64,000 nt of DNA from Candidatus Omnitrophota bacterium (GCA_016206925.1 JACQQS010000062.1:9254-73253); one strand, 5' to 3'; positions 18,141 through 64,000 are shown, counted from the stretch's first letter. Translations and numbers: made by a program. The notes: a model not told the origin generated them from the sequence alone.

Positions 18141-18151
18141 GCGGCATTTCC

Positions 18152-19345: not shown

Positions 19346-19349
19346 AGTT

Positions 19350-20567
19350 TTATAAATGCTGGGTAATGGTCAGAATCGGAAGAAACAACGCAATGACAAT
19401 TCCGCCGATCACAACTCCCAAGAAAGCAATAATGACCGGCTCGATAATGGAAGTCAGCCCGTTTACGGCGGCAGATACCTGTTCATCATAAAAATCGGCA
19501 ATCTTATTGAGCATTTGCTCCAGCTCTCCGGTTTCCTCGCCCACCGCAATCATTCGGACCACCATGGGCGGGAAGAGTTTGGTTTTACTTAAAGGTCCGG
19601 CAATGGTTTCACCCTCCTTGATGGACACCTCGACTTCATTAACGATTTTTTCGATGCGCACATTGCCCGCAGACTTTGCCACGATTTCAAGCGCGGTCAA
19701 AATGTGCACGCCGCTTTTGACAAGCGTCGACAAAGTCCGCGCGAACCGGCTGATGGCTACTTTCAAAAACAATGGACCAAATATGATGAGCTTCAATTTC
19801 ACGCCGTCGAACCAGTAACGCCCGGGGTTCGTGGCGATAAACCGTGTAAAAACAATGAAGAATATCACAAATCCAAGCACGATGAACCAGAAGTTGTCGC
19901 GCACGAATTGGCTGAACTCAATGAGAAACAAAGTTAATTTGGGCAAAGGGGCCTGCAATTGCGCAAAAATTTCGGCAAACTTCGGAATGACAAATGTGAG
20001 CATGAGCGTCGTGATCACCATAGCCATTACGCTGACGACGGCCGGGTAAATCATTGCAGACCGGACCTTCTTGCGCAAACTGCTCATGCGCTCATAGTAG
20101 TTTGCAATACGGTCGAGAATTTCATGGAGATTACCGCTTTCTTCACCGGCTCTGGCCAGGTTTACAAAAAGTTTAGAGAAAACTTTAGGAAATTTTGAGA
20201 GCGCTTCGGAAAACTTCTTGCCCCCTTCTATGTCATCACGAATCTTTAAGATAACGTCCTGAAAATTAGCGTTATCCATCTGTTCGCCCAGAATGGTGAG
20301 GGCCTGGAGCAAAGGCACGCCGGCATCCACCATGGTAGCAATTTGACGGGAAAATACGACAAGGTCATCCAGCTTTATTTTTCTGCGTTTGCGCGTGAAT
20401 CCCTTGCCGGCGAAGAGGCTCTTTTTCTCGCGTATGGGCTCAACCGAGATGATGTGGAAACCCTTGTCGCGCAGAAGACCTACCAGCCTCGTGACATCGT
20501 CAGCTTCCTGGACTCCCCGTATATCTTTGCCCTCGTGGTCTTTCACGTGATATATAAATTCGCCCAT
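19350..20567 (-). CDS. pilC: type IV pilus platform protein PilC (GspF family), copy 1
   Basis: 405 aa with two T2SS-F repeats. Immediately downstream of the two PilB-like ATPases. Confidence 0.85.
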   Translation of the reverse strand: MGEFIYHVKDHEGKDIRGVQEADDVTRLVGLLRDKGFHIISVEPIREKKSLFAGKGFTRKRRKIKLDDLVVFSRQIATMVDAGVPLLQALTILGEQMDNANFQDVILKIRDDIEGGKKFSEALSKFPKVFSKLFVNLARAGEESGNLHEILDRIANYYERMSSLRKKVRSAMIYPAVVSVMAMVITTLMLTFVIPKFAEIFAQLQAPLPKLTLFLIEFSQFVRDNFWFIVLGFVIFFIVFTRFIATNPGRYWFDGVKLKLIIFGPLFLKVAISRFARTLSTLVKSGVHILTALEIVAKSAGNVRIEKIVNEVEVSIKEGETIAGPLSKTKLFPPMVVRMIAVGEETGELEQMLNKIADFYDEQVSAAVNGLTSIIEPVIIAFLGVVIGGIVIALFLPILTITQHL

Positions 20568-20598
20568 GACGGTCCCTTCTCGTTGAAGTGCGGGTTAT

Positions 20599-24008: not shown

Positions 24009-24013
24009 GGAAT

Positions 24014-24562
24014 TTACTCAGTAGACGGCGGACTCTGGGTAGGTTTCTCTGTTTTCTTCTCGCGTGCGACGCGAAAACTTATTTTGGATACGTTCACACT
24101 TGCATTGTTGTCTTCAGGAAATTCGAGCTTGTAGTATCGCTTGATGGCTTTTTTTATCTCCGTTACCGTGGCGACAAACGGCTGCACATGACAGCCTGAG
24201 GTCGATTCAATGGTTTTAATCGCTTGCGCGTTGCTCGGATCAGACATGACCACGGTGAGAATGCTTTGAACTCGGTCAATTGGAATGCATAGATATTGAC
24301 GAACGGTATCTATCGGAAGGGCTTTTACCGCTTGCGGGTTTATTTCGAAGTTATCTATGGGAAGATAAGGAAAATTGAATTGAGTGGCGAGCGCTATGAC
24401 AATATCTTCTTCTTTCACAAAACCAAGGCGAATGAGAATTTCGCCGAGCAGCCCGCCCTCCGATTCTTGCGTCTTGAGTGCCTGGTTGAGCCCGCCTTCG
24501 TTTAGGATGCCGTACTCAAGAAGAATTTCCCCCAGTTTCTTATGTCCCGCTTCCTTGGGCAT
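24014..24562 (-). CDS. stand-alone T2SS-E N-terminal domain protein (MshEN-like; candidate c-di-GMP receptor)
   Basis: 182 aa. Two tandem motifs matching the MshEN consensus: KLGEILLEYGILNEGGLNQALKTQ and LLGEILIRLGFVKEEDIVIALATQ. They are followed by a GSPII_E_N-like fold region (PIDTVRQYLCIPI...VVMSDPSN). Confidence 0.7.
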   Translation of the reverse strand: MPKEAGHKKLGEILLEYGILNEGGLNQALKTQESEGGLLGEILIRLGFVKEEDIVIALATQFNFPYLPIDNFEINPQAVKALPIDTVRQYLCIPIDRVQSILTVVMSDPSNAQAIKTIESTSGCHVQPFVATVTEIKKAIKRYYKLEFPEDNNASVNVSKISFRVAREKKTEKPTQSPPSTE

Positions 24563-39427: not shown

Positions 39428-39460
39428 AATTTAACCGCTTAGTGCAGGTTTACCTGCTAA

Positions 39461-39497
39461 TTTTCCCCAAAAAAGAAAAGTGGGCTTTTGGCCCACT
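39461..39497 (-). terminator. rho-independent terminator-like hairpin (AGTGGGC-TTTTG-GCCCACT) followed on the minus strand by TTTCTTTTTTGG. Lies 35 nt upstream of the nusA start, so it could also be a leader attenuator
   Basis: Read directly. It lies between ORF 39621..39902 / the giant gene and nusA. Confidence 0.5.
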
Positions 39498-39620
39498 TGT
39501 GTGCGAAACCAGAGTTAAAGTTGTCGTTATTTTAGTAACCAAAAGGACTTATGTCAAGCACTTATAGGGCAAAATGCGGACGAAGCGCCAAGGCGGCGTA
39601 AGGTTGGCTAAATAAGAGAA

Positions 39621-39902
39621 TTAGGCGCTGACGGATATGGCCTGAAGCGCGGTTATGTAGGCGGCATACACAGCGCTTAAGTTACTCATAAGCGAAGCGG
39701 TGGGCCGGTACGTGGTGAAGCGCACCGCGTCTTCCGTGGGGTCCAACCAATTCCGGCCGAGCGCTTCCGCGAATCCTAGTCGCGCCAAGTGTAAACCGAT
39801 GAAGTTGAGCGCGGCATATTCCTCATAGGACCTTCCGGTTCCATCCAATATGAGCTTGGGGACTTGATTCAGCAGCCCGCGTTGATTGAGCGCTTCAATC
39901 AA
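39621..39902 (-). CDS. hypothetical small ORF (93 codons) downstream of giant gene 1; TTG start, no visible RBS
   Basis: ORF-track entry only. The start codon is TTG (reverse complement of caa at 39900-39902). No family recognised. May be non-coding 3' UTR. Confidence 0.25.
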   Translation of the reverse strand: MIEALNQRGLLNQVPKLILDGTGRSYEEYAALNFIGLHLARLGFAEALGRNWLDPTEDAVRFTTYRPTASLMSNLSAVYAAYITALQAISVSA

Positions 39903-39916
39903 TTCGGGCGATGCGA

Positions 39917-42900
39917 CTATGCGGCTTTGGCAAAAACTTCAACCATTTCAATTGCGTCACTGATCATCTCAAGCACGTTTGTCGTGCTGAGGACGCGAAT
40001 CCCGATTCGCTTCATCTGCTCAACCCCAGCCATAGGAAAATTTTCTCCCGCCAGCAAAAGAACGGTATTAGGGTGTAGCAGGGCATATGCCTGTAGCGTG
40101 CCTAAAACATTTTCATGCCTTCCGCTTAATGCCGCAACGATCGGGTCGTTATAGTGGTTCGCTAAAGAAAAAGCATCGGGGTCATCGGTGACTATAACAA
40201 TGTCGTCCAAAGGAACGCCAAAAACGCCCGCAACGATTTCCCGTTGGTTCTGGGAGAGCTCGGGTAAGCCGATCAGATAAATCTGTTTAAATCCGTCAAG
40301 ATGGAAGACAAAATTAACCGTCCGCCGCGCAGATTTTCCGGCTTCAAGAATTTGATTTAGAAACAAGGAATCATCGATAATGAGGGAACCTACTTTTTTC
40401 CCCGCCGTGCCGGGTAAAAGAATTTCACCGAGTTCCACGCTAACTGCATCCATTGCCTCCTGGCCTCTTTCGCGTATTATGAGCGGATTACTGCCGGCAA
40501 CTAATTTCAAAGTTTGGCTTAGTTCTGATCCGAAACCAGTACCATCTGTCGTGCCGGCGTCGGTGTCAAAACTGCCGGAATGCTTGTTCAAAGCTGCCGT
40601 GAATATTTCGTTGTCAACAAACCTGAATTGTTTATCACCATCGACCGAAGCTTCAATAAAAATCTCTTCGCCCTCAAGCCCCAGCCGTGCGTAGTATTTT
40701 TCTTGCAAGGCAAAACTCTCTTTAAAATCCACTGCGCGAAGCCTGCCCAGTTCACCGCCGCGGGCTCCTGCGTTAAGAAAATCCTGATGAATTTGTAGTA
40801 CCACGTCCCATGGCTTATTTAAGGCGAACAAGTCAGCTGTTGTTTCGCCCAGACGGCCCCACGCGTCAAAATATGCTCCTATAAGCGGCGCGATTTTAAA
40901 ATCGCCTTCAATCTTTAGACGGGATATTGCAGCAAACTGGTGAATTCTTCTGACCGCGGGTTCGACATCGCGGAGCCATGCGGCCGGAGCCTTGGAGATT
41001 AGATTATTTGATCGAATGGGGGCAACGCGGAATTGCATGCGAGTGGCCTGGGAGGTTGTGTTAATATCAACCACGGTGAATACCTCTGGGCGAGGAGGTG
41101 AGTAAAACGGGATCTGATAGATTCCCGCATATCGAGCAGGAGTTGGAAATTGAAATTGGGACAAAGTTCGTATATCCGATCTCTTTTGTTCCAGCATACG
41201 CCTGGCTTCCCTAAAGTCGAAGGGCTCGCCCCACTGATTCAGAGGCGGGTAACCTTCTTTGTTGATTAACTCTTCTGCAATATCAATTAATTCAACCTGA
41301 GCTTGGACAAATCGTTCAGCCGCTTCTCCGCTGTCCGGATTATAAACGTCGCCGCTGGTTGTTGAATATATTGACTCACGCGTAGCATCGTAGCCCATGT
41401 CAAGTCGGTTTCGAAGCAGTTGGTAAGGCAGATAGTGTTTCCACAAGACATCGGAAAGATCATCAATAACATGGGACAAAATTTGGATAGGATCGGTGTG
41501 GTCTTTATATCGAAATCTATCCGGTCCCGCGCCTCGATCTATTTCACGGAGCGGCTGAAAAAGCTCACGCAGTAAATCGCTATTGGCGACATATCTTGAT
41601 TCTAAGAGGTGATCAAAAAAGGCACTCAGCCAATCTTGAAGGAAATCTAGTTCCGGTATCGGGGCTTCATAGGAATCTTTGCCAAATTCCCTCGCTTGAT
41701 TGAAATCGTAAGCCACAAGTTGAAGGTAATAGCCAAAATATTTTTTAAAACTCTTTAAGGGATCCCGCTCATTGAACAAATCAATATTGCTGCCCGCATC
41801 GGTATAGTAACCTGTGGCCAGCGTATTGTCCGGATTCAAGGCGATATGGACGTTCGCAATGTGATGCGTAAGAATTTCTGCAGCGTTCCAACCCATCTGT
41901 TGGGCAGCCGATCCCGGATCGAAATCTTCGCCACCACCCTTGAAAATATGCCCTATCCGTTGATTTGTCGGAGAAGCTCGGCCAATAATTTCAAAGCGCG
42001 TGTCGTTGCCCGGATAACGGAACCGCAAGCGAAAAAGTGCGCGCGGCGCAGCGCCGTTAAAATAGGCGTCCGTTCCTACGAGTCGCAGCAAGTGGATAAC
42101 GTCTCCTTCGCCGCCAGCTTGATGACCCGGATAAAGCGCGCCGAGATCGACGCGCGTGACCACATGTTGCCCGGCTTCGTTTTTATCTCCGGCGCCGCCC
42201 TGAACGACGCGCCCGCCTGTCGCGCGAATGTTTTCGCCTCTACCGCCCATGAAAGGCCCCGCTGATTTCAAGTCAACGATAAATTCAGCGCCCATATCTG
42301 AAACAATCAGGACAGGTTCTCCCGAATCCATCCAAAAAAGCATTCCACCCCGTCCCGGAGCTACTGTATCCGGGTCGAGGTTGACTTCCATCATGTATCG
42401 AAGTTTGGTTTGTGCTTCGCCATCGACGGTGGAAAGAATCTTGCCCTGCCCCCACACTTCTTTTGTAAGCCATTCACGTAATTCCCAAGGCAGCCGCATA
42501 AAATCCTCATATAATTCCACCTGGAGATCTTCAACGGGCACGAGGTGGAGAGGCACTTCAAGGGAGAATTTCGTCCACACATCCGGAATAGTCCGCTTGC
42601 TCTCCTGCATGTCGCCGACCCACTTTACCGTAATGCGATTGGAGTAATCATCTGGATCTGTATGGCGTTGCATTCGGCCGTTATGATCCCTTCGGTAAAT
42701 ATGACTTACAAGGAATTTACCTTTGAATCCCAGCTTATGAGCGCGATCTTTAGCCCAGTCAGGTACTCGGGGCGAGCGTTCACTTATTCGAAGGTCGGGT
42801 CTTTCTTGCTGCGTGCGTTCATCGCGCGCAATATCGGACCGCACCCGATCCAGATGGGGTGAAGTAAATAATGCTTCTAATGATGCACCGGTTTGGCCAA

Positions 42901-45900
42901 GGATTCCATGCTGCATTGTAGCGAGACCTTGAGTTAAACCGATTACGCCGGATGCAGGAACGTCGGAAACTATTGTTGACATCGTCTCACCTAAACTAAT
43001 TGCCAGCTTACCTTGTGCCCTTAATGTGGTGCTAACAGATCTAACGACGGGCGACAAAACTTTCGACTGGAGAAATTCTTCGGCCTTAATTTTTGAGTCT
43101 TCTTGCCACGAGAAAAGATCGTCCTCAATATCTTTAATCGAACGCGTTGGCTTCGGAATTGAGGAATCTGCGGCATCTTGATGAAGCCTTGCGTCAGCCA
43201 ACTCTTTTTCCAACTCGGCTGTGTGCCGGCGTCTTCCGGTGGCGTACAGTAAATTCTGCGTAGCCTTTTGCCTGTCATACTCATACCTAAGACGCGAATT
43301 ATTTATCTTCTCCCCTTCGTTGGCAAACGCCTTCCAATAAGCCAGCTTGGCCCCTGCAGTTCGGATCGCCTGATCGATTTCATCCTGCCGGCTAAGGTCA
43401 GGCTCCGATTTCATGGCCCCGAGCTCTTTCAGGAGCGAAGTTAGATGGGCAATTCTTTCATTCGCAGTGATTTGCTTGAAAAGAGGCTGCGAACCGTTAT
43501 AGATATGCCCCTTTCCGAATGTTTCAATCCGCCAGTCTAAAGCGAGAAATATGCGGTAATCCGCATCTGAAAAGAAATCATAGGTATCAACAATTATCTT
43601 GTCTTCAAGACCCATCATGTGCGCTACGGCTTTTATAGGGTCGAGGCCCGGGTACGTTTTCCTCCGCGTCCCCGCATCGGGGTGTTCGCGGCGTTTATGA
43701 ACAGGTTGATTGGAGCCGACGTATTCAAAATGACGTGTAGCAAAAACCAGTGCGTCGAGTTTCGGATGGAAGAATTCCAGCGGATTTTCCACCTTGCGAA
43801 AGGGTATCGAATTAAGGTCATCTTGGTTCAGGCGACCGCGCGCTTGCGATGATGCGCCTCTAGGTTGCTGTAAGGCAAGTTCTGGCCAAAAATCAGTATA
43901 AGGATCTGTGGCCTCTACGCGGCCTCCGAAATGCGCCATTTCGCGGACGACATGCTCTGAACCACTGTGCTTTGTGTTGCCGGTTCCTTCTTTATACCCT
44001 GTTCCGAGAACGCCTACCGTTATTTCCGAAAACTGCACATGCATTTTGCCCGTAAATTGATTAAGCAGCTTCCACGTGACGTCTTTTGCTCTCTCCTGGA
44101 GCATGGATGATGCGAGAAGCCGCGATTGAAATATCCGAAAGATTTGGTCATCCTCCATTTCGAAGTAAGTTCTTAACCCAACTACTATTTTCAAGAGTGC
44201 TTCAGGAGTACAGCTTCCACCGGGACACATGGAGGGAGCGCGCCGCATTCCCATGCGGGACCTTGGGTGAGCGCGTACAATGCCTTCGATTATTTGAAAT
44301 GCGTCGACCCCAATTACTTCTGCGGTTTTAAGATAGCCATCTAAAATTTCAAGCAAATCGTAAAACCAAGATAGTTCCAAAAGCTTCAAAAATTCAACAT
44401 CCTCGGATACATTCCAGACTTTATAAGTAAAACCGATTTTTTTAAAGTAGCGCTCGAGATCTTCCCGCGCGGCAGGTGAAAATGCGGCGCTCTCCCTTCT
44501 AAAATCTCGTAAGGATCGCAGTTCTTCCGCTCCGGGCGCCAAACGTTGAGGTGAATAGGCTAGGCGGACATACGGTGCGCCACCTTCTTTAGCTTCTGGA
44601 AATCGATCGCGCATTACGCGGTCTATCGCAGGCAAAGCTTCTTTCGACACGAACCCAGGTTGTACCGTGCTCTCGATCACTACAAGAGCGTCCTTGCGAA
44701 TGAGCGAGCCGATGGTTTCAAGCAATTTTGCGGTGGGCTGAGTGTTAATATGGGCTTGCTGAAATGTGCCCCGTGGAGGTGCATGCATTTCCAATTCAGT
44801 CTCTACGAGAACGACATCTGCTACCGCCATCACTTCAGGCAAAAATGTCGCGGCAATTACACCGTCACTGCGCGCCGTGCGAAAATTACGAATCATTTCC
44901 TGGTCGGTAGTTGGATGTGGTAACAGCCCGTCGTTTATAAAGTGAACTGCATATCCGGATCTGGAAGTTGGTCTTTGGTAGGCTATAGAAAAATAGGGCC
45001 GTTCTTGTGCGGAGATAGTTCCGCGGAATCGATTGCCCTCCTGCTGGTCGAGCGGGGCTCTCGCTTCGGATGCCAATGCCATATTGGCTTGCGCCACATG
45101 TCCGGCGCCTACATGGACAGAAATCTCGCGGCCTAAGGCACGCTGAATAACAATCTCAGCCATCAGATTAATCCTCATCTGCTCAAATTCGGCAGCATCG
45201 AAAGGCAGTGTGAACGATCTCCCCTTGGGAGCCGTGGTGAGAGTACCCGCTTCAGGGAGCTGATCCAGACTTCTGTATTCAGGAATCTTGTAAGGGCCGA
45301 GCTTTGTGCTACGGTCGGCTTCAATTAGAGCGACAAATGTATCAATGGCCAATTCCCCTCTTGAAGCGAGAAAACGCGAAAGTTCCATTTCTCCGCTCCT
45401 GTCGGATCCGGGATTAAACCACCGAAGCATGGCTTCTTCCACATCGGTTCGGATAGTTTCAGGCGAGATGGGCGGCGCGTCCGAACCAAAGCCGCGTGCC
45501 ATGCGATCTGTAAGTTCTCTCAAGCGTTCCTGAAAGAACTGTACGGTTGTTGAATTTGCAAATGTTCCATTGCCGATAGATTCAATGCGAACTGATTGGG
45601 GCGACTGCGCATAGTTTAGCCATTGCGAGCCGGATTTTCTCATGCCCGGCGACTCATCACCGCGCCAAAGGATGACATCGGTAGTTCCAGGGAACTGCGC
45701 AAAGCGATCACCGATATCATCCGGGACGTTTAAAATCGGATGTTGCGGGCCATATAATCCGCGCATTACTTTGTTCAAAGGTTGCACGGGCGTACGAATG
45801 AGGATTAAATGCCGTGTGTTAGAAAATTCAGGCTCTGACGCAACAATGGGCAGGAGTTGGCCGCCGTGTTCTTGTCCAATCAATATGATTTTTGGCGGTT

Positions 45901-55300: not shown

Positions 55301-58300
55301 CAGGATTTAGCGTCGCTGCAGCAAGTTGAATTTCCGCATGATGTGCGGACGCTAGAAAACGGTCTCTTCTTTTGGATATGAACTCGGCTAATTTCGAGAA
55401 GCGATCACGCCCTAGAGGTTTTCGGATGCGCGCTAAGGTGACATGAACTACGCCGGGCGCGCCTCCCGTTGGTGAAGTTTTTCCGGCAAGCGCTTTGCTA
55501 AGCTCTGTTCGAAGAGAAACTAGATTTAAGTCACGCACGAAACCTTGAGCGATTAAGCTGCCACCTGGGCTTAGGGTAATTCCCTTCCAATCTATGTCGA
55601 ACGGTTGCGATAACACGATTGCTGAATTTATGTCAGGAATAAGCGCTTGGATGGCGTTGTCAGAAAGGTTAGCATCGTAGACATCGTGCGGAATATAGAT
55701 ACTTAGATGAAGGTTTTCATTTGGTATCCAGAGGATTTCGTCGTTCGACCAAGTAAATTCATAACCCAGGACTTCCTCGTGCATTTCCTTACGAATTTTC
55801 TGTACCTGAGTAATGAATGGTATGGACTCCGACAAGTGTGCGAGGACGTTGGAGGTTTTACCAACGCGAGGATTTCCGTCTTCGTCGTAATGTCTGGGAT
55901 GGCCTGCAAAATCCTTTGGATCAAAATCGCTCCTAGATGTACCAATGTTTGTTAAGTTGTTAAATATTTCATCGTAGCGCTCTAAGAGTTTTTTATTAAA
56001 TTGTTCGATCGTACCGAATCCAGCCGACGATCGCGTAATTAGCGGCGCTGGCGCTTCTGCTGATTCTCCTTCGTGCGGTTGAGGGGCAACTACATCTGGC
56101 GGTTGCGCTGCTTCCCCTTGGGCGGGCGGCGACCGTCTCAAAAACTTCCAAAGCCAAATGGTGAGGAGCAACGTAAGATAGTAGAAGGTATCACTCCCAA
56201 CAACAATTGTTCTGATCGTGGCTGTCTGATGACCCACAAAGTTATATAGTTTTACAAAGCTGTCGGCCATGTTTGCGCTGCCGATCAAGTAAGCACCCCC
56301 GATAAGACCGGCGGTGAGCAGTACTTTTAAGGCGGCAATCGGTGCGACGTGCTTAAGGTAGTAAAGGACGTCACTCTCTTTACGTCCTCCTCCCAGAAGT
56401 GCGTGTTTGATACTTGGATATTCGTTTGTCGTGTGCCAATGGAGGAACATTTGCGTCATAAGTAAGCCCGCGCTGTTCAAACCCATGAGTGCGACAAGAA
56501 CGCGGACGGGATCGGGCAATGTGCCGGAGACGGCAAGCGCAATTACGATAACCACCACTAATATATTGAAAAGGGCCATCCCGGCTGGAAAAACCGGTTT
56601 TGTCTTCGCTTTTATTATTTCCAAGTGAGGACGCTCTCCGGTGAACTCAACCTCGTAGTCTCTGTACCCATTAACCGTGATCACGGCGGTTTTTTTGGCA
56701 CCGTTGTAATCTGTAACTCGTGTATCACGGAGACGGACCGATTGTGTTTCTGGATTATCCGGATCAAACCGATTCAGGGCCGGCTCTAGTTCCGATGTTC
56801 TAATCGAATGATCCCTCTTCTCTTCCAACTCAACAATTGTTTTCGAATCTTGCGTCATAAACAGCAAAATACTCGCTGTGACCAGATAGACCGGAGCATA
56901 TATGAAAAGAGTCGATAGTAAACCCGTTTTTGGCGCAAAACCAAAAAAAGGAATATAGCCAGCAACGGCGGCGACAGCGAGCGGTAACGCCAGCATTAGA
57001 GGAATCATACCTGCGGGCGAAAGCGGCATAGAACCCGAGATCATCGAAAGCCAGAATGCTTTGAACGGATTTGCTGAAGTCTCGCGTCTGTAGTCCTTAT
57101 TCAGCTCCTTCGTCCTGGCGAGCGACATGTTTGGGCGCCCAGCCAAGATACGGTAGATTTGGAAGATCAAACCCTGCCGCAAAGGCTGGGCAGATACCCA
57201 GACGGTCCAAAGATAAAGGAAAATGGAGCTGAGCCAAGGGAGAGCTCCGATAGGTAAGGACATCCATCCGAGCGAAAGCGTGGTAATGACTGCGTCTTGA
57301 TGACTGAGGTAGATGAGGCCCAAAAGAAAGCCTGCTGTAAATAACGGACTGACAACAGCGTGGCGTGAGGAAATTAAGAAATCAATATATTCCCCTTGCC
57401 GAAGGTTCCGGACTTGTTTGCTTACCAGCCGTTCAACGATAGCATGACCAAGCCAAGCTGTTTCAGCTTTTACAATAGTCCACATCGCCTTGCCAAGGAT
57501 GAGGAAAAACTCCAGTGTTTTCACAAGATATGCGATGGTGGACTTTACTAATTCAATGGGGAAGTTAATAATATACCGAATAGCGTTGAGCAGTCTGAAA
57601 GAAATCATTCCAAACGTGATTCTGATAAAGCCGATCAGACCGAGGCCTCGTTCGTACCGGACGACATCATAACGTCCCAGCTCCGGAAGGATGCCTGCGT
57701 TTTGTAACCAGTCCAATATCAATTGATTGTCTTCGTTGCGATAGTCAATTTCACCCCACGATTTCGCAATCCTGCCGCTGGAGAGAACGTACGCAATGCC
57801 GGCCAACACTCCGAGCACCATGTTAATCAGTTCGAAGAACGCCTTACCGAGTTTGGTAAGAAGGATAATTGGAATCATACTGACGAGCAGCAAACTGTCA
57901 GCAATAGGGAGGGGAATAATACTCGGAGACAAGTAAGATCCGCCGCCGATCAAGCTTGGTAAAAGCATATCGCGGAATACGTTCTCCAAACCAAGAAAGT
58001 AAGGTACCCCCCTGGAGTAAAACCCCAGAATCAGATACGCAGAGAAGAAAAGAGCTGTAAACGCTCCGCGTGGCGGGATAAACTTAGAATAAAGCGAGCC
58101 TAAGTCGACCGCTTCATCATCGCTTTCCTCGGTTGATCTGACGTAGGGACTAATGGCGGGTGTCCCGGTTACTGTGTTGTAAATATATTGTGCGAAGCTC
58201 ATGGGAACACCGTAAAAAAGCTTCATGGTTCCCTTCTTCAAGGCTTCCCACTCGCCGCCGATCCAGCGAGTTCCCTGGATAATCATATCTTTAATGGTGT

Positions 58301-61300
58301 AATTCACGTCTTCCCACGCGGCAAGAAAAGGAAGATATGCCGTTTTTGTTATTCCATATTTGTATGAATCTTCAATCTGAGCCTCGGCCGGCAGTATTTC
58401 GCCGCCAAAGAGCCGCGTGCGGTAAGTTATGCCGCCCAATGTGATTCTTTGGCCTTGCAAGCTCTCGCGGAGAAAGTCTTTCCGCTCGAGGCCATTCCAC
58501 ATCTCAGGAAATTCCCTTTCATTCCGTTTGGGAGCCGAGCGTCCAAGGATGATTCGTTGGCCACCGATGGTTAATGCGTATTCGTAGAATGACCGTCCCT
58601 GACCTTCCGGATCTTGAATGGAGTGGCCCGCATGCCCGGTATCTGGATCTATCTCAAATTTCACGTCATAACCGATGTACCGTTTCCTTTTGTGCTCGAC
58701 GGTAGGTTGATCAATAGTGAAGTCTGTAGTTTGTTCGAGCTTCGCCGTTTCTTCTGGTGTCAGAATCCAGCTACCGTCTTCGCTGATGAACACGCGATCC
58801 TGCGCAGTCATGATCGTGCCCACGCGGCGATTCTTCGCATCGTAGAGGATGATACGGGGATCCATAAGTTTTCCGATGAAATCGGCCATGCGTCCAATGA
58901 ACTTGCCAAACATGCTGAAACGGCCGCGGGCAAATGTTTCGCCGACGGGCAGAAAATAAAGCATTTCGCGCGCGACTCCCGGCATCCAGCTTATGGGTGT
59001 GAAGACCGTGTTAAAAGCGCGTAAGAATGGCTGGAACATTGAATAACTGCGGTTGGTCCAATGCTCCGAAATTTCCAATGTCGATCGCACAATTCCATCA
59101 GGCCAAAGATTGTCACCGTCACTCACAATTTTATATGGATATCGCCCGCGGAACTCGTAGAAGGTTGTATCTATTAGGGTGCGGTTTCCTTTCAAAATAG
59201 CTTCGGTTACCGTTGTGATCTGACGTTCGGAATTATCGGGATCGGCTACCCCACCCTTGTATTTTCCAGTCAATCCGGCCTTCTGGAGATCCCACACATC
59301 TTGCATTTCACCTTCCTGCATTTTGATCAGATCCTTAATGAATTGCCGGTAACTATACCCTTTAATGTCATACGCAACATTCAGCGGGAGCCCAAGTTTC
59401 TTTAAAGCCTCTTCACCTTCTTGCGGAGTCTGAAACGTGTTTATAAATTGATCAACAAGATCTCCGTCAGAGATACGAGGCTCTTCAGCGCCAAATCCTG
59501 CGGGCGGGCGGTTCTGACCCAAGCGTTGTTCCAAGGCGGCACGCAATTTGGGTATATTGATGTAACCCCAGGCAGGCAGTGCAGGATCTTTAACAAAGTT
59601 ATCGCGATACGCTTCGATGTATGTTAGGTTTCCGTAACGGTCGTAGATAAATTCATAGCTAACGACTCCAATTTTTGCTGATTTGGGATTTCCATTTGGG
59701 CGGCGTGTAATATCTTCTGGTTTAGCTTTTTTTAGAATCGCATTTTTACGCCACGGCGCAACGCGTCGCGTATGATGCAGTTCATTCCTTCGCGTGTATT
59801 CCTCGCCTGTATATTCCGAAGCATATAACTGACCTCGAAATCCAAGAATTGTTGCATCGTCATCCTGGCCGGATTTTCGCAGGTGGCGGTTGGTACGGTG
59901 GATAAACTTGAGATCCCGCTTGAACTGGGCAATGTGGGCGCGCAGAACGGCTTCGACAAAGGCGCCGGTTCCCTGTGTATTTGGAATATGTGGCAGGTCT
60001 TTTTGAATCTGCTCGAAGATTCCAACCCACAAGCCTACAGCATCGTGAAATGAGCCAAAATTCTCTTGAAGCGATTTTTCTGTCTTCTCATCAATTGGCC
60101 GAACCGATTCGCTCAATTGTCTCCAGTCATCAGGTGTGAGTACCGCGCCAGCACGCTGTCTTAGATGGGCGACGACATTCTCAAGGGAAGTTTCCATAAT
60201 GCTTCCAATTTTTTCACGCATCTCTTCCCTCACACGCGCCGTTTCCATCAAAACGGAGAAATTGTTGCTTGCATCCACGATAGTTGTTGTAAGAGTATGA
60301 TTTGGATCCGCATTGCCTAGGTGCGTGCCGTGTCCCTGTTTCTTAAGTAGTTCGGCCATATCCTCTGTAGTCTCGGAAATCCTGTAGAATTGACCCATTG
60401 TTGCATGTCCAAGCGGTATTGCGCTGACAAGCACACGTTTTCCGCCAACCACTACGCGTTTAGCAAAACTGTGTGCCTTAAAATATGCGCGCCGCCGTTC
60501 CGACCTGTCTCTTTCCGGTTTCGCATCGTCCGTCGTTTTGTTCATCGACCCATATAAAATCGAACCGAGAATGTAGGAGAGGAATCCCGCAACGATATCT
60601 CCGAGATTCCAGTAGAGCGGAAATGTCACAAGCGTTCTGAGAGCCGCGGCCTCAAAATTGGAAATCTCGGGAACCATCAGTATCCAAGACCAAATGGTTG
60701 TGATCAAAGCAAATCCGATCGAGACAGGGGCATAAAAGAAAAGAAAGATGGGACCTGTAGTTCGCAGCGCCCTCCAGTTCTTGTATCGATAGAGCGGACT
60801 GATAGTCCATTTGAGTATTTTTAACCCAATCAATGCAGAAATGAAGTAGGAAGGGTAAAGAAATGCCAGGATGGGCTGGCCGTAATGCTCGGTCATTAAC
60901 TGCGGCAGTATCGTGGTAAGCAACCCCACGCTGACAGCTTTTAAGAATCCCGGAAGGAAGCTGGGCAAAGCGCCATACATCAAGCCTATGAATGTGGAGA
61001 AAATCAACGCACCCACTATTGTCAAGATGGTATCGGGGAGAAGTCGGTAATTTTCAAGATGTTTCTTAATCTGAGCCGTTATATGGAATAGCCGCTGGAT
61101 TCGATACTCACGGTGCGTAATCAAAGTATGTATGTATTTTAATAAAAGCAAAGCGAACGGAATCGAAATGGACAGTATAGCCCCAAGGTTCAGTCTTTGA
61201 ACTCCGGCCGCCGTCTCAAGACCTTGTTTTATGTCCACCGGCATCAAAGGAGAGATGAAATCGAACAAATGTCCTGTGATTCCATGAACCAGATAAATTC

Positions 61301-63935
61301 CTAGAGCAGCGACTGCTGAAGCAGTGAGAATACCTGCCACTGACTTCAAGACTTTGCCTCTGATCGCTAATATCTTTGCCGCAAGGTATCGCATCGGGAT
61401 CCTGGCAAAAATCAGCGCTACGCCTCCAAAAACAAAAGCCGTCCACTTGTGCTGGAACATCCATTCAACCATGCTGAAGAAGGCGCGCCATAGACCTTGC
61501 GATATTGGGAATTCCCGAATTGCATCATTTATGCCCAACAGGAAAACAATAATGGTTAAGGCCGCACCAAGATAAAGCCGTCTAGAGAAAAGACGGCGTG
61601 AGAATGTCTTTCTTTTGGCGAAAAAGGTGTAGACATGCGGAAGGACAAGAGCTACAAACCCGCCTAATGCGACGTAAGCCATAATGAAAGCGTTTGTTTT
61701 CTGGGTATGCCGCTCTTCGCGCGCGATGATATCATCACCGACCGCCCTTGCGCTCTGGCGCGTCTCTTGAATAGCGGGAGGCCCCATGCGTTCGAACATA
61801 AACTCAAGGAGTCCTTGCAGCTTGAAGAATGCGTTTGAGGTGATATCAGCCTCAGGCATGCCCATACGTTTGAGCGCGTCGGCATGCACAAGCTGTAAAC
61901 TTCTCAACGTCTGAAAGTGCTCGAGTCTTTTCGTTATTCGTTCCTTAAGTTCGTCTTTGTCTGAGAACGAAATAAGCGGCCACTTTGCCCTCTCTTTTGG
62001 TGGCTCATTATCGTGACCGGAGATACCAAGAAGATATCTTCCTTGACTCATGAAGAAGCCAGCGACGCTACCAGATTTGTCGAAGAAATCGAACTCTTCC
62101 TTCTCTTCTAAAAGTTCTTTCATGTCGGGTCCCAGCAGGAGTCCGGTGTTAAAACTCTCACGTACCTGAGCAAGGCGCTCGCGTAACGGCATTTTCTTCC
62201 ACTCATCCAGCTCCTTATAGGTTGCTGCGCTCCACCCGCTTAAGCCTAATAGGTAAGTCAGTTCGCCAATGAAAAAGCCAACCTCCTTCTTGTTGGTGAA
62301 ATCAAGTGCCTTACCGCTTGCTTTGTGCTCATTAACCTTCTGCTCAATTGTTGTGTGCGTGCCTTCACCAAGTGATTCAACAGCTCCAAGCATTGCAAGA
62401 ATCAGCTCGAAAGTTTCCTCGCGCTCCAGAGTATGAGCGGGCAACGCTTCTTCAATTTCGCTAATCCATTTTGTTGTGTACTCCCAGCCGTTGAGCTGCC
62501 GTGTAATGGCCCAAGCAATCACAAAGCCACGGTAACGCCGGTTCGTAATAAAACTTTCTTGTCCGGGTGGGACTTTCTCACCGAAAAGTATGTCGCTCAG
62601 CTTCGAAGCTTCCTTGAAGGCGGTTGCGCGTTTTTCCTTGTCGTTCAAGACTTCTGTTAAAAGGGTAACACTCCTATTATCTTTGGCCTTTTCTTGAAGC
62701 GGTGGTTCTACGACACTTCGGAAACGCTCCTGAAATTTCTTAATCTGTTCTACTTGTATCCCATCTGGATCGAGTTGACTTTTGTCAGCTAGTCCGTCAG
62801 GCAGTTGAACACTTTTACCTAACTGAGCGTATATTTTTTTAACGGTTTCGTAGCCTGAGAAATTATTGCGCATAATCTCGCGGGTGATCTCTGCTCGCGC
62901 CGCTTGATGCGCCAGTGCTTGTTCAATAAAGGTATAAACTTTTCTAGGAGGTATTTCTCCTGTTTTTGCATCGCGGCTAGGGGTGCCATAGGTATTTACT
63001 CCGCCCGTCGCAAGATAGAGGTGAAAATTCGTGCTTGCCCACGGATCGCCTGTGGCAGCCAAAATGGCTACCGCGTACCCTGCGACTTTGGAGTCATCCG
63101 TCGTTAGCCCATAGTTCTTGTACGGCTCACGCATCGCCAGAATGCTTACATGCTCACCAAATTTCTTGGCTATTTCCGTAGAATCCACCGTTGGTGCGGC
63201 ACCAATTACTTGGTAATTCATTTTGCTCCGCCGCTCTTTATTTAGAGCGAGATACGACTGAACTGCGCGAGTCATAATATCCGGTAGGAAAGCATGTTCT
63301 CCGCTAACGGGGTAGTAAATCACCCAGGAGTAATCAAAAGCGCTTTGGACAAAAGTTTTCGGCACTGTAATGCCATCGATAGTTGTCCAGTCGAGTCGCA
63401 TGCGTTTAAAGGCGCCGTCAGATTTTAAATAACCGAGTGAAAACAATTCCGCAATCAGGTATCCGGCTTCTGACATGATGTATTCATATGTCGCAGGTTT
63501 GCGCGGATAAATCTCCCCTTCAATAAGTGTGGTTTCGCTGCCCCATTTCGGGACAGATTTGCTCTGGACGAGTTTGCCACTTGAATCAAGCTCAACCTTC
63601 ACCGTCACTTTTGTTTTTAGACGGCCTGAAGTTTCATCAATAAAATGCTCATAGTTGTGCCGCTGAGGATCGTTGAATCGATCTATGGCAGTGACGATCT
63701 TCTCTTCGATAGAATCTGCTGCCGCGTTTTTTTCATAGTAGTTTCGAATCACATTGAGCTTGGTAGTCAGCCAAGCCATGTCGATAGGTGAGAATGAAAC
63801 AGTTCCGGTAACCGGAGCACCCGGAATGAAGCGAGTCTTTTTGTCAATGATTATCTTGGGCACGATTTTCCCATTTGCATAGTCATACACCAACCATTCC
63901 GGAAGGATTCCCTCATAGCGTGGCACCTGTTCCAA
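52344..63935 (-). CDS. giant polytopic membrane multidomain protein (at least 3863 aa): ~750-aa N-terminal soluble region, three TM clusters (~22 helices), embedded 2H-phosphoesterase-like, DUF218/YdcF-like and HD-phosphohydrolase-like domains, ~400-aa C-terminal region
   Basis: Uninterrupted 11.6 kb ORF. The first start-like codon is TTG at 63935, three codons after an in-frame TAG. 2H-like: NLHLSIYI ... VVHVTLARI. DUF218-like: ADLILALGSY ... KRILVAGG ... ENRSTNTGANIQNAAQLL ... IILIQFPLGQ. HD: ILWHAVVLHDYGRLV. Confidence 0.8.
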   Translation of the reverse strand: MEQVPRYEGILPEWLVYDYANGKIVPKIIIDKKTRFIPGAPVTGTVSFSPIDMAWLTTKLNVIRNYYEKNAAADSIEEKIVTAIDRFNDPQRHNYEHFIDETSGRLKTKVTVKVELDSSGKLVQSKSVPKWGSETTLIEGEIYPRKPATYEYIMSEAGYLIAELFSLGYLKSDGAFKRMRLDWTTIDGITVPKTFVQSAFDYSWVIYYPVSGEHAFLPDIMTRAVQSYLALNKERRSKMNYQVIGAAPTVDSTEIAKKFGEHVSILAMREPYKNYGLTTDDSKVAGYAVAILAATGDPWASTNFHLYLATGGVNTYGTPSRDAKTGEIPPRKVYTFIEQALAHQAARAEITREIMRNNFSGYETVKKIYAQLGKSVQLPDGLADKSQLDPDGIQVEQIKKFQERFRSVVEPPLQEKAKDNRSVTLLTEVLNDKEKRATAFKEASKLSDILFGEKVPPGQESFITNRRYRGFVIAWAITRQLNGWEYTTKWISEIEEALPAHTLEREETFELILAMLGAVESLGEGTHTTIEQKVNEHKASGKALDFTNKKEVGFFIGELTYLLGLSGWSAATYKELDEWKKMPLRERLAQVRESFNTGLLLGPDMKELLEEKEEFDFFDKSGSVAGFFMSQGRYLLGISGHDNEPPKERAKWPLISFSDKDELKERITKRLEHFQTLRSLQLVHADALKRMGMPEADITSNAFFKLQGLLEFMFERMGPPAIQETRQSARAVGDDIIAREERHTQKTNAFIMAYVALGGFVALVLPHVYTFFAKRKTFSRRLFSRRLYLGAALTIIVFLLGINDAIREFPISQGLWRAFFSMVEWMFQHKWTAFVFGGVALIFARIPMRYLAAKILAIRGKVLKSVAGILTASAVAALGIYLVHGITGHLFDFISPLMPVDIKQGLETAAGVQRLNLGAILSISIPFALLLLKYIHTLITHREYRIQRLFHITAQIKKHLENYRLLPDTILTIVGALIFSTFIGLMYGALPSFLPGFLKAVSVGLLTTILPQLMTEHYGQPILAFLYPSYFISALIGLKILKWTISPLYRYKNWRALRTTGPIFLFFYAPVSIGFALITTIWSWILMVPEISNFEAAALRTLVTFPLYWNLGDIVAGFLSYILGSILYGSMNKTTDDAKPERDRSERRRAYFKAHSFAKRVVVGGKRVLVSAIPLGHATMGQFYRISETTEDMAELLKKQGHGTHLGNADPNHTLTTTIVDASNNFSVLMETARVREEMREKIGSIMETSLENVVAHLRQRAGAVLTPDDWRQLSESVRPIDEKTEKSLQENFGSFHDAVGLWVGIFEQIQKDLPHIPNTQGTGAFVEAVLRAHIAQFKRDLKFIHRTNRHLRKSGQDDDATILGFRGQLYASEYTGEEYTRRNELHHTRRVAPWRKNAILKKAKPEDITRRPNGNPKSAKIGVVSYEFIYDRYGNLTYIEAYRDNFVKDPALPAWGYINIPKLRAALEQRLGQNRPPAGFGAEEPRISDGDLVDQFINTFQTPQEGEEALKKLGLPLNVAYDIKGYSYRQFIKDLIKMQEGEMQDVWDLQKAGLTGKYKGGVADPDNSERQITTVTEAILKGNRTLIDTTFYEFRGRYPYKIVSDGDNLWPDGIVRSTLEISEHWTNRSYSMFQPFLRAFNTVFTPISWMPGVAREMLYFLPVGETFARGRFSMFGKFIGRMADFIGKLMDPRIILYDAKNRRVGTIMTAQDRVFISEDGSWILTPEETAKLEQTTDFTIDQPTVEHKRKRYIGYDVKFEIDPDTGHAGHSIQDPEGQGRSFYEYALTIGGQRIILGRSAPKRNEREFPEMWNGLERKDFLRESLQGQRITLGGITYRTRLFGGEILPAEAQIEDSYKYGITKTAYLPFLAAWEDVNYTIKDMIIQGTRWIGGEWEALKKGTMKLFYGVPMSFAQYIYNTVTGTPAISPYVRSTEESDDEAVDLGSLYSKFIPPRGAFTALFFSAYLILGFYSRGVPYFLGLENVFRDMLLPSLIGGGSYLSPSIIPLPIADSLLLVSMIPIILLTKLGKAFFELINMVLGVLAGIAYVLSSGRIAKSWGEIDYRNEDNQLILDWLQNAGILPELGRYDVVRYERGLGLIGFIRITFGMISFRLLNAIRYIINFPIELVKSTIAYLVKTLEFFLILGKAMWTIVKAETAWLGHAIVERLVSKQVRNLRQGEYIDFLISSRHAVVSPLFTAGFLLGLIYLSHQDAVITTLSLGWMSLPIGALPWLSSIFLYLWTVWVSAQPLRQGLIFQIYRILAGRPNMSLARTKELNKDYRRETSANPFKAFWLSMISGSMPLSPAGMIPLMLALPLAVAAVAGYIPFFGFAPKTGLLSTLFIYAPVYLVTASILLFMTQDSKTIVELEEKRDHSIRTSELEPALNRFDPDNPETQSVRLRDTRVTDYNGAKKTAVITVNGYRDYEVEFTGERPHLEIIKAKTKPVFPAGMALFNILVVVIVIALAVSGTLPDPVRVLVALMGLNSAGLLMTQMFLHWHTTNEYPSIKHALLGGGRKESDVLYYLKHVAPIAALKVLLTAGLIGGAYLIGSANMADSFVKLYNFVGHQTATIRTIVVGSDTFYYLTLLLTIWLWKFLRRSPPAQGEAAQPPDVVAPQPHEGESAEAPAPLITRSSAGFGTIEQFNKKLLERYDEIFNNLTNIGTSRSDFDPKDFAGHPRHYDEDGNPRVGKTSNVLAHLSESIPFITQVQKIRKEMHEEVLGYEFTWSNDEILWIPNENLHLSIYIPHDVYDANLSDNAIQALIPDINSAIVLSQPFDIDWKGITLSPGGSLIAQGFVRDLNLVSLRTELSKALAGKTSPTGGAPGVVHVTLARIRKPLGRDRFSKLAEFISKRRDRFLASAHHAEIQLAAATLNPGQLIGDESLNPVANFHLGFGARLNDLNTLATFLAQRDQLPEKADLILALGSYDMRVPIETARLFKEGKAKRILVAGGAGRLTGFPNAAAYKRGVKLLVDAGINVQVARQMLKGWFRGRKHIKKEADLFREVLIALGIQDKNKLGEDIILVENRSTNTGANIQNAAQLLNDKTLHDKIASIILIQFPLGQKVASATFQKQFMIHYRGQEPNVYNYAPPLAKLEDLSRQELDEAIVLATGSIVRLKAYGPKGRGFLVDVEISGNVQDAFERLASPAQIAEFYHGGYASNAELQLKLEEKQKGLHKTITFEKVKQFYKAAQTAKSPSELKAVYDKYLGIFDWEALVPITGEAWKAADGTTAKMKSHHDAMIALVDALEQGGDIAARALHERALEPLDLDLIQKIVAQYQNLSTSERRILWHAVVLHDYGRLVTNGPQHAQIGARLVNNLLEHLDSFSTQLSAEGIQPFSPQDMDQLIEYTGRELEFGSLHWGETIPANVARGLRRQGIDVSKFLRTMSIVAGIIDPASVGAGRLRNTHLQNVEILSDAHSLSALQRHWSFIRLNALFHDEKLEYPFTPDILSAPALSSRVPHIFTELVYRPDIKTALRNVAFQKFIMLFRNIAERGTTGPENAAKWLILLLGLHERNKINFVGLSIDFGEFVQPFIQILEGIDLNKVAAGEITANLHEDTLVVSDAVTKQTYFSIPYSKTSDRNGIELNMPEFKGPESGFGIAAPAPKPQPNLDQIFNEAESWMGKWANAAAGKDLAFQTSVLADSRRSIAPEEQKLADALVSLLAAQPIQSIGAIHGKVVHAVDFNSGLITADQLGDSSFWQNYFGTQLPTHRVTVYNAPANIALPEPFSEFVEITTETTPASTRTGWNNADRIVVSSNILSSYGSAELEEKVVQVLVDIGDIESKVSAERLATIRALGMQFGRLLAFDLLSGELGRVAAYRVAGTRAYVFNSATVTAILSHFIDEAKKYEAIARAA

Positions 63936-64000
63936 AAGGCTGACTAATCGGTAGTGCCGTTCAGCGGTACGATTGTAACGTTGCGCAAAATCGGTAGTCT

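Follow-up and report, generated by a model that had tools for sequence, protein, structure and literature searches.

A probable conserved giant-gene locus with a LacI-family regulator and unrelated mobile ATPase genes in a Candidatus Omnitrophota bacterium

Organization of the locus

The 64,000-nt stretch of Candidatus Omnitrophota DNA analysed here (GCA_016206925.1, JACQQS010000062.1:9254-73253), hereafter the window, contains at positions 39917-63935 (24,019 nt) two giant open reading frames (ORFs) designated G1 and G2, a LacI/GalR-family regulator and two AAA_14/DUF4143 ATPase genes designated A1 and A2. The sequence derives from a metagenome-assembled genome (MAG), and the NCBI copies of G1 (P0001, HY587_07075, called with 2,673 amino acids) and of A2 (P0010) are both annotated as Candidatus Omnitrophica, the contig having a length of 87,982 bp. 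The explanation of the whole region which we consider probable is that the giant genes form, together with the regulator, a locus conserved in Omnitrophota, and that the two ATPase genes are mobile insertions unrelated to it.

G1 is located on the minus strand (39917-47989) and encodes 2690 amino acids. It is divergent from the LacI gene (48268-49320, plus strand, 350 amino acids), which is followed by A1 (49503-50885, plus strand, 460 amino acids). A2 (50957-52231, 424 amino acids) and G2 again lie on the minus strand, which carries all of the large genes in this part of the window. ORF calling recovered the five genes where a preliminary description of the sequence had placed them, and the two giants indeed take up 82% of the region ((8073+11592)/24019). 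The identities proposed for the regulator and the ATPases are confirmed by Pfam domains, and the ATPase genes are convergent, i.e., tail to tail as described, with a gap of 71 nt. Their designation as paralogues applies at the level of the family, but not beyond it, since they share 25% identity (E 7e-27). The start of G2 had been set at 63935, which is merely the first TTG inside the window; the frame is free of stops to base 63998, and the window thus ends within G2. Its in-window part (52344-63935, minus strand) encodes 3863 amino acids, and the open frame amounts to at least 3,884 codons. Boundary markers of a mobile island had been reported as missing, which agrees with the present analysis: neither a tRNA nor an Rfam family was found anywhere in the 64-kb window, and no integrase is present among its annotated ORFs.

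Conservation in related genomes

Related loci were retrieved from two independent genomes and are located on the contigs L002 and L003, one of which comes from ENA (252 kb) and the other from groundwater (129 kb). Exact look-ups of P0001 and A2 led to no contig, and that of LacI led to a Logan contig of 1.5 kb only. Two scans of the GTDB representative genomes, one with the N-terminal part of G2 and one with the G1 alignment, revealed no relative. In both related genomes, the order of genes is giant gene, LacI gene on the opposite strand, G1 orthologue, third large gene and nusA, and the genes from nusA on are nusA-infB-rbfA-truB-ribF-rpsO-pnp. The synteny of the giants and the LacI gene is thus kept in both relatives, whereas no AAA_14/DUF4143 gene is found on either contig; the distance between the stop codon of the giant gene and that of the LacI gene is 102-147 bp in the relatives and 3,024 bp in the window. 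Since gene order and divergent promoters are conserved in both relatives, the regulator and the giants are regarded as a conserved unit, and the absence of any ATPase gene from both relatives excludes the ATPases from it. The preliminary description had named, as an observation that would speak against a unit of all five genes, giants that occur without the LacI and ATPase genes and next to unrelated neighbours: the giants do occur without the ATPase genes, but the LacI gene and the same neighbours are kept.

The identity to the relatives is 89% for NusA, 83-84% for LacI and 74% for InfB. G1 shares 64-66% identity over 99% of its length with its orthologues P0002 and P0003, and the last 686 amino acids of G2 share 52-55% with the relatives' giants (tblastn, E 0). 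The giants at the position of G2 consist of 8,092 and 8,323 amino acids, and G2 is thus probably much longer than 3,884 amino acids. A comparison of base composition with the housekeeping block, which the preliminary description had suggested, showed that the giants and LacI (GC content 0.483-0.496) match the housekeeping range (0.467-0.512), while A1 (0.449) and A2 (0.439) have the two lowest values among 31 genes. Codon-usage distance sets no gene apart from the housekeeping set; GC content does so for the ATPases only.

The third large gene of the relatives, which is located between the G1 orthologue and nusA and encodes 1,129 or 2,153 amino acids, is represented in the window by a remnant of its last 99 codons (39621-39920, minus strand). 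The remnant is stop-free, ends with ISVSA, shares 58-61% identity with the relatives' genes (tblastn, E 1.5e-36 and 6e-39) and begins immediately at the stop of G1, so that the gap 39428-39916 is not empty. Both third genes match a profile hidden Markov model (HMM) of the N-terminal domain of G1, the head domain described below (E 1e-85 to 1e-89), and the ancestral locus therefore had three tandem members of one family; 3-6 kb of the third gene are deleted here. The remnant is interpreted as a stump left by the deletion, although a TTG at 39902 could possibly be the start of a small ORF that is expressed. Directly upstream of nusA-infB, the locus would comprise the tandem giants G2 and G1 and the 3' stump of the deleted third member.

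The ATPase genes A1 and A2

Both ATPases combine an AAA_14 domain (Pfam E 3.7e-28 in A1 and 1.2e-37 in A2) with a DUF4143 domain (E 2.6e-31 and 2.2e-19), and both match models of the PADLOC candidate PDC-S01 over their full length (A1, PDLC04789, E 3e-81; A2, PDLC04787, E 5e-107). In the passages of PMC12988326 that deal with PDC-S01, it is described as a putative defence candidate with an ATPase and a PD-(D/E)XK domain, pending validation, which is the fourth most common candidate in prokaryotes, was repeatedly transferred between Archaea and Bacteria and is treated by PADLOC as a single-gene candidate. DUF4143 is listed within the PD-(D/E)XK superfamily in the relevant passage of PMC3424549. 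By inspection, a PD-(D/E)XK-like motif is present in A1 (EVDF...VEVK) and degenerate in A2 (EVDF...INVT), where E and K are missing. The likely start of A1 is the ATG at 49566, and a palindrome is located at 49517-49576.

A2 is carried on a 1,427-bp unit (50910-52352, minus strand) that is bracketed by a perfect direct repeat of 16 nt, with copies at 50910-50925 and 52337-52352. The second of these copies lies upstream of A2 and coincides with the end of G2: its coding-strand sequence, GCG-GCA-TAA-TTCAAGT, consists of the last two codons of G2, the stop codon and 7 further nt. There are exactly two occurrences of this 16-mer in the 64 kb, and none of 100 shuffled sequences contained two. A2 is presumably a recent insertion, and the empty-site allele would join the stop of G2 to position 50909 through a single GCGGCATAATTCAAGT. 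Boundary repeats that enclose A1 and A2 as a pair were not found. Perfect direct repeats also flank homologues on the contigs L008 (33 nt, 6328-6360 and 7830-7862) and L012 (16 nt, 2894-2909 and 4301-4316), where the duplicated sequence is a nearby promoter or the end of a small adjacent ORF. Altogether, three of nine AAA_14/DUF4143 genes are flanked by repeats; among randomly placed intervals of equal size, the background is 0.7%.

A2 possesses its own predicted control region (52275-52339, minus strand), consisting of the palindrome TGTCTT-N6-AAGACA (52319-52339) and the promoter TTGACT-17-TATCAT (52303-52275), which lies inside a second palindrome. The same design is present upstream of homologues on L006, L007, L009, L011 and L012, which together with A2 gives six loci from different phyla: the palindrome TTGTCTT-N6-AAGACAA is followed by the promoter AGTTGACTTCT..AGAAGACA..TATAAT, whose -35 element lies in a second palindrome. 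The palindrome that travels with these genes is probably an autoregulatory operator. Homologues of A2 with 52-73% identity were found in the bacterial groups Armatimonadota, Desantisbacteria, Patescibacteria and Cyanobacteria as well as in the archaeal groups Aenigmarchaeota, Diapherotrites, ANME-2 and Methanosarcina, and weaker ones (at most 41% identity) are encoded on 405 plasmids. The neighbours of the fetched homologues are unrelated and include rplS, a sulfatase gene with HepT/MNT, a diversity-generating retroelement with a second AAA_14 gene, CRISPR-Cas, HicAB and housekeeping genes; a giant or LacI neighbour was found at none of the nine homologous genes inspected. One homologue with 57% identity to A2 (L009, 3001-4278) lies inside a CRISPR-Cas locus between MazE/PIN and Cas1/Cas4, which again indicates that members of the family end up in defence regions.

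These features suggest that A1 and A2 are independent, horizontally mobile single-gene PDC-S01 units, each with its own promoter and palindromic operator, which would have entered the space between the stop codons of G2 and the LacI gene in this lineage only; the arrival of A2 would have duplicated 16 bp of its target. More generally, PDC-S01 genes may be self-contained mobile cassettes of gene, promoter and palindromic operator, which generate target duplications of 16-33 bp and have no recognisable recombinase. Such hallmarks of a mobile unit bear on the question of whether PDC-S01 is an immune gene or a selfish element.

The giant proteins G1 and G2

Pfam is nearly blank for G1 and G2, whether searched with the whole proteins or with 16 segments. 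G1 starts with a Sec-type signal peptide, recognised by inspection (about residues 18-52), which belongs to a head of 571 residues (46277-47989, minus strand). A nucleotide-sugar dehydrogenase-like module is located at residues 1078-1423 (43721-44758, minus strand). It matches the PDB entries 4r16 (E 2.4e-9) and 4xr9 as well as TIGR03026, the latter at E 1.3e-15 but with 57 bits against a cut-off of 189.8 and over positions 91-391 of the 413 profile positions. The catalytic-Cys motif GGSC at residues 1257-1260 is invariant in the orthologues. A simple Kyte-Doolittle scan of G1 detects the signal segment at the N-terminus and, further inside, a single weak stretch of hydrophobic residues. An AlphaFold2 (AF2) model of residues 1755-2484 reached a predicted local distance difference test score (pLDDT) of 39.9 and was not used, and a kinase-like motif seen by eye in the same part of G1 was dismissed as unsupported.

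In G2, the same type of scan predicts two transmembrane blocks, the first at residues ~750-1090 (60666-61688, minus strand) with about seven hydrophobic segments and the second at residues ~2006-2550 (56286-57920, minus strand). Residues 2965-3156 (54468-55043, minus strand) form a DUF218/YdcF-like module, which reaches 38.2 bits against Pfam PF02698 when searched as a separate segment and 29.5 bits within the complete protein (cut-off 27.6), and which matches the structure of YdcF (PDB 3ca8) at E 1.4e-5. A possible 2H-phosphoesterase (LigT-like) module is encoded at 55365-55523 (minus strand); its match to LigT_PEase is weak (E 0.007, below the cut-off), and two H-x-S/T motifs, HLSI and HVTL, were spotted by eye. 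An HD motif (HAVVLHDYGR), which was also considered, obtained no support from Pfam or PDB. The C-terminal 686 amino acids (52347-54404, minus strand), ending with IARAA, are common to the relatives' giants, to which G2 aligns with residues 3178-3863 only, and a search for protein homologues with residues 2600-3863 gave no match. Comparison of G1 with G2 and of each protein with itself by BLAST revealed neither paralogy nor internal repeats; due to the absence of the latter, the giants are not regarded as repeat adhesins.

The head-domain family

A phmmer search of 1.84 billion representative proteins with residues 1-571 of G1 yielded 6,032 matches at E<=1e-3, of which 2,915 remain at E<=1e-10. 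The matches are cluster representatives at 50% identity, and the family is unannotated. In all of the 150 matches listed, the head domain is N-terminal, and the host proteins have lengths of 426-7,853 amino acids. G1 thus defines a family of thousands of proteins of 0.4-7.9 thousand amino acids with a common signal peptide and a TIKI-like head. One further member, HY587_06220 with 1,839 amino acids, is encoded in the same MAG. The domain is absent from 72,556 plasmids.

Nine members with 17-51% identity share the invariant residues D100, H102, Q108, E128, G418, G419 and H421 (G1 numbering). The head matches Pfam TraB_PrgY_gumN (PF01963) at E 0.008 with 16.5 bits, compared to a cut-off of 26.8, and a profile search against PDB returned nothing relevant. 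Its AF2 model has a pLDDT of 72, and the best Foldseek match in PDB is EreC (6xcs; E 0.029, TM-score about 0.2); HopBA1, another member of the superfamily, is also among the matches. The head is tentatively designated as TIKI/TraB/EreA-like, as a putative member of the superfamily; the scores are weak but agree in direction.

The GFG motif and the C-terminal ends

The tripeptide GFG occurs three times in G1, at residues 572, 833 and 2485 (46268-46276, 45485-45493 and 40529-40537, minus strand), and four times in G2, at residues 1480, 2639, 2896 and 3604 (59490-59498, 56013-56021, 55242-55250 and 53118-53126, minus strand), compared to an expected number of 1.7; the other 31 ORFs of the window contain two copies in 12,732 amino acids. 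The three sites divide G1 into the head (1-571), the stretches 572-832 and 833-2484, and a tail (2485-2690). Despite their location in variable stretches, all three sites are invariant among the orthologues, and site 3604 of G2 is conserved at residue 2582 in L002 and residue 2591 in L003. Within the head-domain family, the motif is recurrent in one subgroup and not universal: one member contains 16 copies in 3,618 amino acids (0.8 expected), others contain 14, 9, 9 and 6 (GFG-bearing members: P0142, P0204, P0192, P0205 and P0271), and HY587_06220 has four. The consensus is [SP][SAP][AS]-GFG-[AS] and is surrounded by otherwise unconserved polar sequence. In each of 11 proteins examined, the first site is found behind the head, at residues 447-609 (the head of G2 lies outside the window), the last site is located 113-260 amino acids from the C-terminus, and the spacings between sites are domain-sized. 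In the AF2 model of the head, the pLDDT is below 50 over most of residues 446-571 of G1 (403-528 of the model), just before the first site. The third genes of the relatives (L002, 18175-21564; L003, 18089-24550) have collinear ends with 65-69% identity and differ by an internal block of ~1,000 amino acids, whose edges lie within 12-25 amino acids of two GFG sites in the longer protein (618 and 1708). This difference is consistent with the gain or loss of whole modules. A function of GFG as a prepilin-peptidase site was considered and rejected, as no hydrophobic stretch follows it.

A C-terminal helix ending with [AS][ALV] is common to G1 (39920-39940), G2 (52347-52370, both minus strand), the relatives' genes and the long members of the family. 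It is amphipathic, with the ends AA, SA, SL and SV, and often follows a P-x-x-P-[FY]-D stretch. Among the C-termini of 157 family proteins, 68 end with A, and the endings AA, SA and SL are found in 30, 23 and 11 proteins, respectively. The C-terminal [AS][ALV] could be a degron, a signal for PDZ proteins or tail-specific proteases, or an export signal.

We propose that the G1 chain consists of a Sec signal, the TIKI-like head, enzyme-like modules that are often split by [AS]-G-F-G-[AS], and the C-terminal helix, and the giants would most likely be envelope-anchored or exported multi-enzyme carriers. GFG may be a module boundary or a processing site. In its broadest form, the giants may represent a vast and so far undescribed family of bacterial 'polyproteins' with a Sec signal, a TIKI-like hydrolase head and interchangeable enzyme or membrane modules, which may be released, or at least delimited, at [AS]-G-F-G-[AS] and whose chain may be closed by the C-terminal [AS][ALV] signal. 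Taken jointly with the interpretation of PDC-S01 as an independent, self-contained cassette, this proposal is tentative, and we regard the combination of both as possible but rather doubtful.

The proposal nevertheless yields a concrete cleavage hypothesis that is open to proteomics. In their 2023 preprint, West-Roberts et al. state that missing information on cleavage points prevents the dissection of giant proteins, and neither 'polyprotein' and 'LacI' nor cleavage points or a linker motif are found in the texts of this preprint and that of Nielsen & Lui (2026). If the hypothesis is true, the GFG sites would be the processing sites that are called unknown in the published work on Omnitrophota giant proteins, and such proteins could be cut into functional units, both in silico and in the laboratory. 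The architecture of head, GFG sites and C-terminus, as a testable polyprotein model, and the mobile PDC-S01 cassettes are the new leads that emerge from the locus.

The LacI regulator and the divergent control region

The regulator contains an N-terminal HTH_LacI domain (PF00356; E 5.6e-13, 48.9 bits compared to a Pfam cut-off of 27) and the sensor domain Peripla_BP_3 (PF13377; E 3e-40). It matches a LacI subfamily of NCBIfam at E 1.8e-59 and stays below the curated cut-offs of specific equivalogs. The region between the LacI gene and G1 comprises a divergent control region (48009-48194) with the promoters of both genes, which are predicted to be sigma70-like: TTTACA-17-TATAAT for G1 (48037-48009, minus strand) and TTGACG-17-TAATCT for LacI (48165-48194, plus strand), each scoring 11/12 in the scan. 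Both promoter blocks are invariant or nearly so across the three genomes. The spacer also contains one weak inverted repeat, which is present in the window only and is not kept in the relatives. Based on the gene arrangement, LacI most likely represses G1 and perhaps also itself, and it would respond to a sugar-like ligand. With its high conservation and its divergent orientation to a giant gene, the regulator provides an experimental handle on the timing of giant-gene expression.

Genomic surroundings

The proximal edge of the giant-gene locus is marked by the predicted promoter of the nusA operon, the near-consensus TTGACA-17-TAAAAT, together with a hairpin (39478-39557, minus strand). This hairpin in the nusA leader is strong, is accompanied by a T-run, lies 50 nt before the start codon and may be an attenuator. 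rimP does not precede nusA in this genome or in the relatives. Downstream of G1, the window contains nusA, infB, truB, ribF, pnp, ftsK, a miaB-like gene, pgsA, pgpA and a LigT-like gene. Beyond the nusA-pnp-ftsK block, a complete-looking type II secretion system/type IV pilus (T2SS/T4P) cluster is located at 4813-24562 (minus strand), which encodes two GspE proteins, an MshEN-only protein, two GspF proteins, a secretin and PilM/N/O as well as a ParA-like ATPase, PilS/PilR, a pilin and two PMT_2 glycosyltransferases. The cluster is ~15 kb away from the giant-gene locus, behind the housekeeping operon.

Alternative explanations

According to the preliminary description, the regulator, both ATPases and both giants might be one functional unit, in which the ATPases act as ATP-driven accessory factors, for example in the folding, export or assembly of the giants. 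The tight packing of the genes, with gaps of 71-182 nt, and the position of A2 directly downstream of G2 on the same strand would fit this idea. However, both relatives keep the giants and LacI without an ATPase, A2 is controlled by a promoter and operator of its own and is bracketed by a target duplication, and the nine homologous genes elsewhere have unrelated contexts. In addition, the ATPase genes differ in GC content from the rest, and their family is a nuclease-fused defence candidate. A five-gene machine is therefore very unlikely and should be dropped, and with it the role of the ATPases as accessory factors; the part of the claim that links the regulator to the giants is retained, as synteny and promoters are kept, and regulation itself is inferred. 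A narrower assumption is that A1 and A2 cooperate as a two-gene defence module, i.e., as a heteromeric PDC-S01 pair. Two adjacent AAA_14/DUF4143 genes are also found on L008, and the combination of an intact motif in A1 and a degenerate one in A2, both judged by inspection, could suggest a division of labour. The direct repeat, however, brackets A2 alone, the low identity of the two proteins goes along with matches to different PADLOC sub-models, most homologues are single, and PDC-S01 counts as a single-gene candidate in PADLOC. We consider such a pair improbable.

The preliminary description had also offered an accessory island as an equally good alternative, according to which the entire 24 kb, including the giants, would have been acquired horizontally. 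The locus is indeed plastic, as illustrated by the ATPase insertions, the deletion of the third gene, the indel of ~1,000 amino acids and the replacement of most of G2, and a 2026 preprint reports flanks rich in mobile elements at some giant loci. In all three genomes, however, the locus occupies the same position next to nusA, GC content and codon usage of the giants and LacI agree with those of the housekeeping block, and there is neither an integrase nor a tRNA or boundary repeat. Furthermore, LacI is conserved like the core genes, and plasmids lack the head domain. An island of this extent is thus quite unlikely, and the idea holds for the ATPases only. It could finally be argued that the giant ORFs are no genes at all but chance ORFs, pseudogenes or assembly chimeras, in line with the near absence of Pfam matches and the low confidence of the AF2 model of G1 1755-2484. 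However, all three genomes contain a collinear G1 frame without stops, the promoter of G1 is consensus-like and conserved, its head recurs in thousands of proteins, and the catalytic motifs of the enzyme modules are retained. For G1, this explanation is already refuted, and overall it deserves next to no credence.

The preferred explanation, a conserved giant-gene locus with its regulator and with unrelated mobile ATPase genes, also has to face a number of observations that weigh against it or against its extensions. Only two independent relatives were retrieved, and a metagenome scan added just the JGI contigs L004 and L005, whose gene layout and coordinates are identical to those of L003 and L002. 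As no LacI-type palindromic operator was recognised in the spacer between LacI and G1, the control of G1 by LacI is deduced from gene arrangement alone. No boundary repeat was found for A1, and for PDC-S01 an antiviral role is proposed. Residues 1-3177 of G2 are without a counterpart in the 2,150 amino acids that precede the shared tail of the relatives' giants. The N-terminus of G2 lies outside the window and the head HMM does not match the in-window part, so that membership of G2 in the family is indicated through its GFG linkers and its -AA end only. The assignment of the head to the TIKI superfamily suffers from a Pfam score below the cut-off, a Foldseek E value of 0.029 and the replacement of the first Glu by Asp. 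In G1 and G2 alone, GFG ranks 7th of 3,586 tripeptides, and it takes first place once the non-orthologous parts of the relatives' proteins are added (13 observed, 2.3 expected, p = 1e-6); moreover, the third genes of the two relatives do not share all of their GFG sites. With an HMM of the tail, constructed from 69 members of the family, the tail of G1 could not be connected to that of G2, and the tails encoded by the relatives' third genes were not detected either, so that a single conserved tail domain is not shown.

Comparison with known systems

Similar to local repressors of the LacI/GalR family, the regulator has a full-length architecture of HTH_LacI and a periplasmic-binding-protein-like sensor and shares a control region with a divergent neighbour. 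Instead of a catabolic operon, however, it would presumably control just one gene of 8 kb, which encodes a giant exported protein. A1 and A2 appear to be ordinary members of PDC-S01 with regard to their combination of AAA_14 and DUF4143, their full-length model matches and their distribution across both domains of life; no feature distinguishes them from the family, and the PD-(D/E)XK motif of A2 seems degenerate on inspection. Target duplications and a promoter/operator that travels with the gene are not mentioned in the passages on PDC-S01 in PMC12988326 and PMC3424549.

The head can be compared with RRSP, an effector of MARTX toxins with a TIKI-fold endopeptidase and a 2His/2Glu site formed by E3900, H3902, E3930 and H4030 (PMC6254334). 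The arrangement D100-x-H102...E128...H421 parallels the E-x-H...E...H motif of the TIKI superfamily in order and spacing logic. It differs in a helical insertion of ~290 residues between E128 and H421 and in an Asp in place of the first Glu; all scores of the head are below the family thresholds, and the head is fused N-terminally to proteins of up to 7,853 amino acids. MARTX toxins as a whole may be regarded as a functional analogy, in that both they and the giants are exported chains of several thousand amino acids with unrelated enzyme modules and short linkers, and the head of G1 resembles the TIKI site of RRSP. The glycine-rich RTX repeats (Pfam, self-BLAST) and the internal cysteine protease Peptidase_C80 (Pfam) were, however, not found in G1 and G2. 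While MARTX toxins use type I secretion, G1 carries an N-terminal Sec signal, and no ATP-binding cassette (ABC) transporter, membrane fusion protein (MFP) or TolC is present among the annotated ORFs of the window.

The closest resemblance is to the giant proteins of Omnitrophota, which are membrane-associated or exported, include a multi-enzyme class and are encoded near T2SS/T4P genes (Nielsen & Lui 2026; West-Roberts et al. 2023, both preprints). The Archaeovorin-type giants described by West-Roberts et al. exceed 30,000 amino acids, a length that neither G1 and G2 nor the relatives' proteins reach. SecA_DEAD/SecA preprotein-binding, C39 and S8 domains, which characterise this type, were not found in G1 and the in-window part of G2 (Pfam to E = 1, 16 segments), and the same applies to the dockerin and TSP3 domains of Omnitrophota giants (Pfam). 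With regard to the numerous transmembrane helices of the Archaeovorin type, a simple hydropathy scan points to two polytopic blocks in G2 and, in G1, to the signal segment and the weak internal stretch mentioned above. A T2SS/T4P cluster is present in the neighbourhood, though 15 kb away beyond nusA-pnp-ftsK. The multi-enzyme class of Nielsen & Lui (2026) is catalogued from 10,000 amino acids upwards, which is more than the length of G1 (2,690), of the relatives' giants (8,092-8,323) and of the part of G2 that can be read (at least 3,884). In other respects, this class agrees well with the giants described here: they belong to the same phylum, possess a signal peptide and/or transmembrane helices, combine unrelated enzyme modules without repeats, leave most of their sequence without a Pfam match and have a T2SS/T4P cluster in their neighbourhood. 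Several distinct enzyme-like modules are present, comprising the nucleotide-sugar dehydrogenase-like module, DUF218, the weak LigT-like module and the TIKI-like head. The locus is thus a further member of the Omnitrophota giant-gene loci already described, and its ATPases are ordinary mobile defence candidates.

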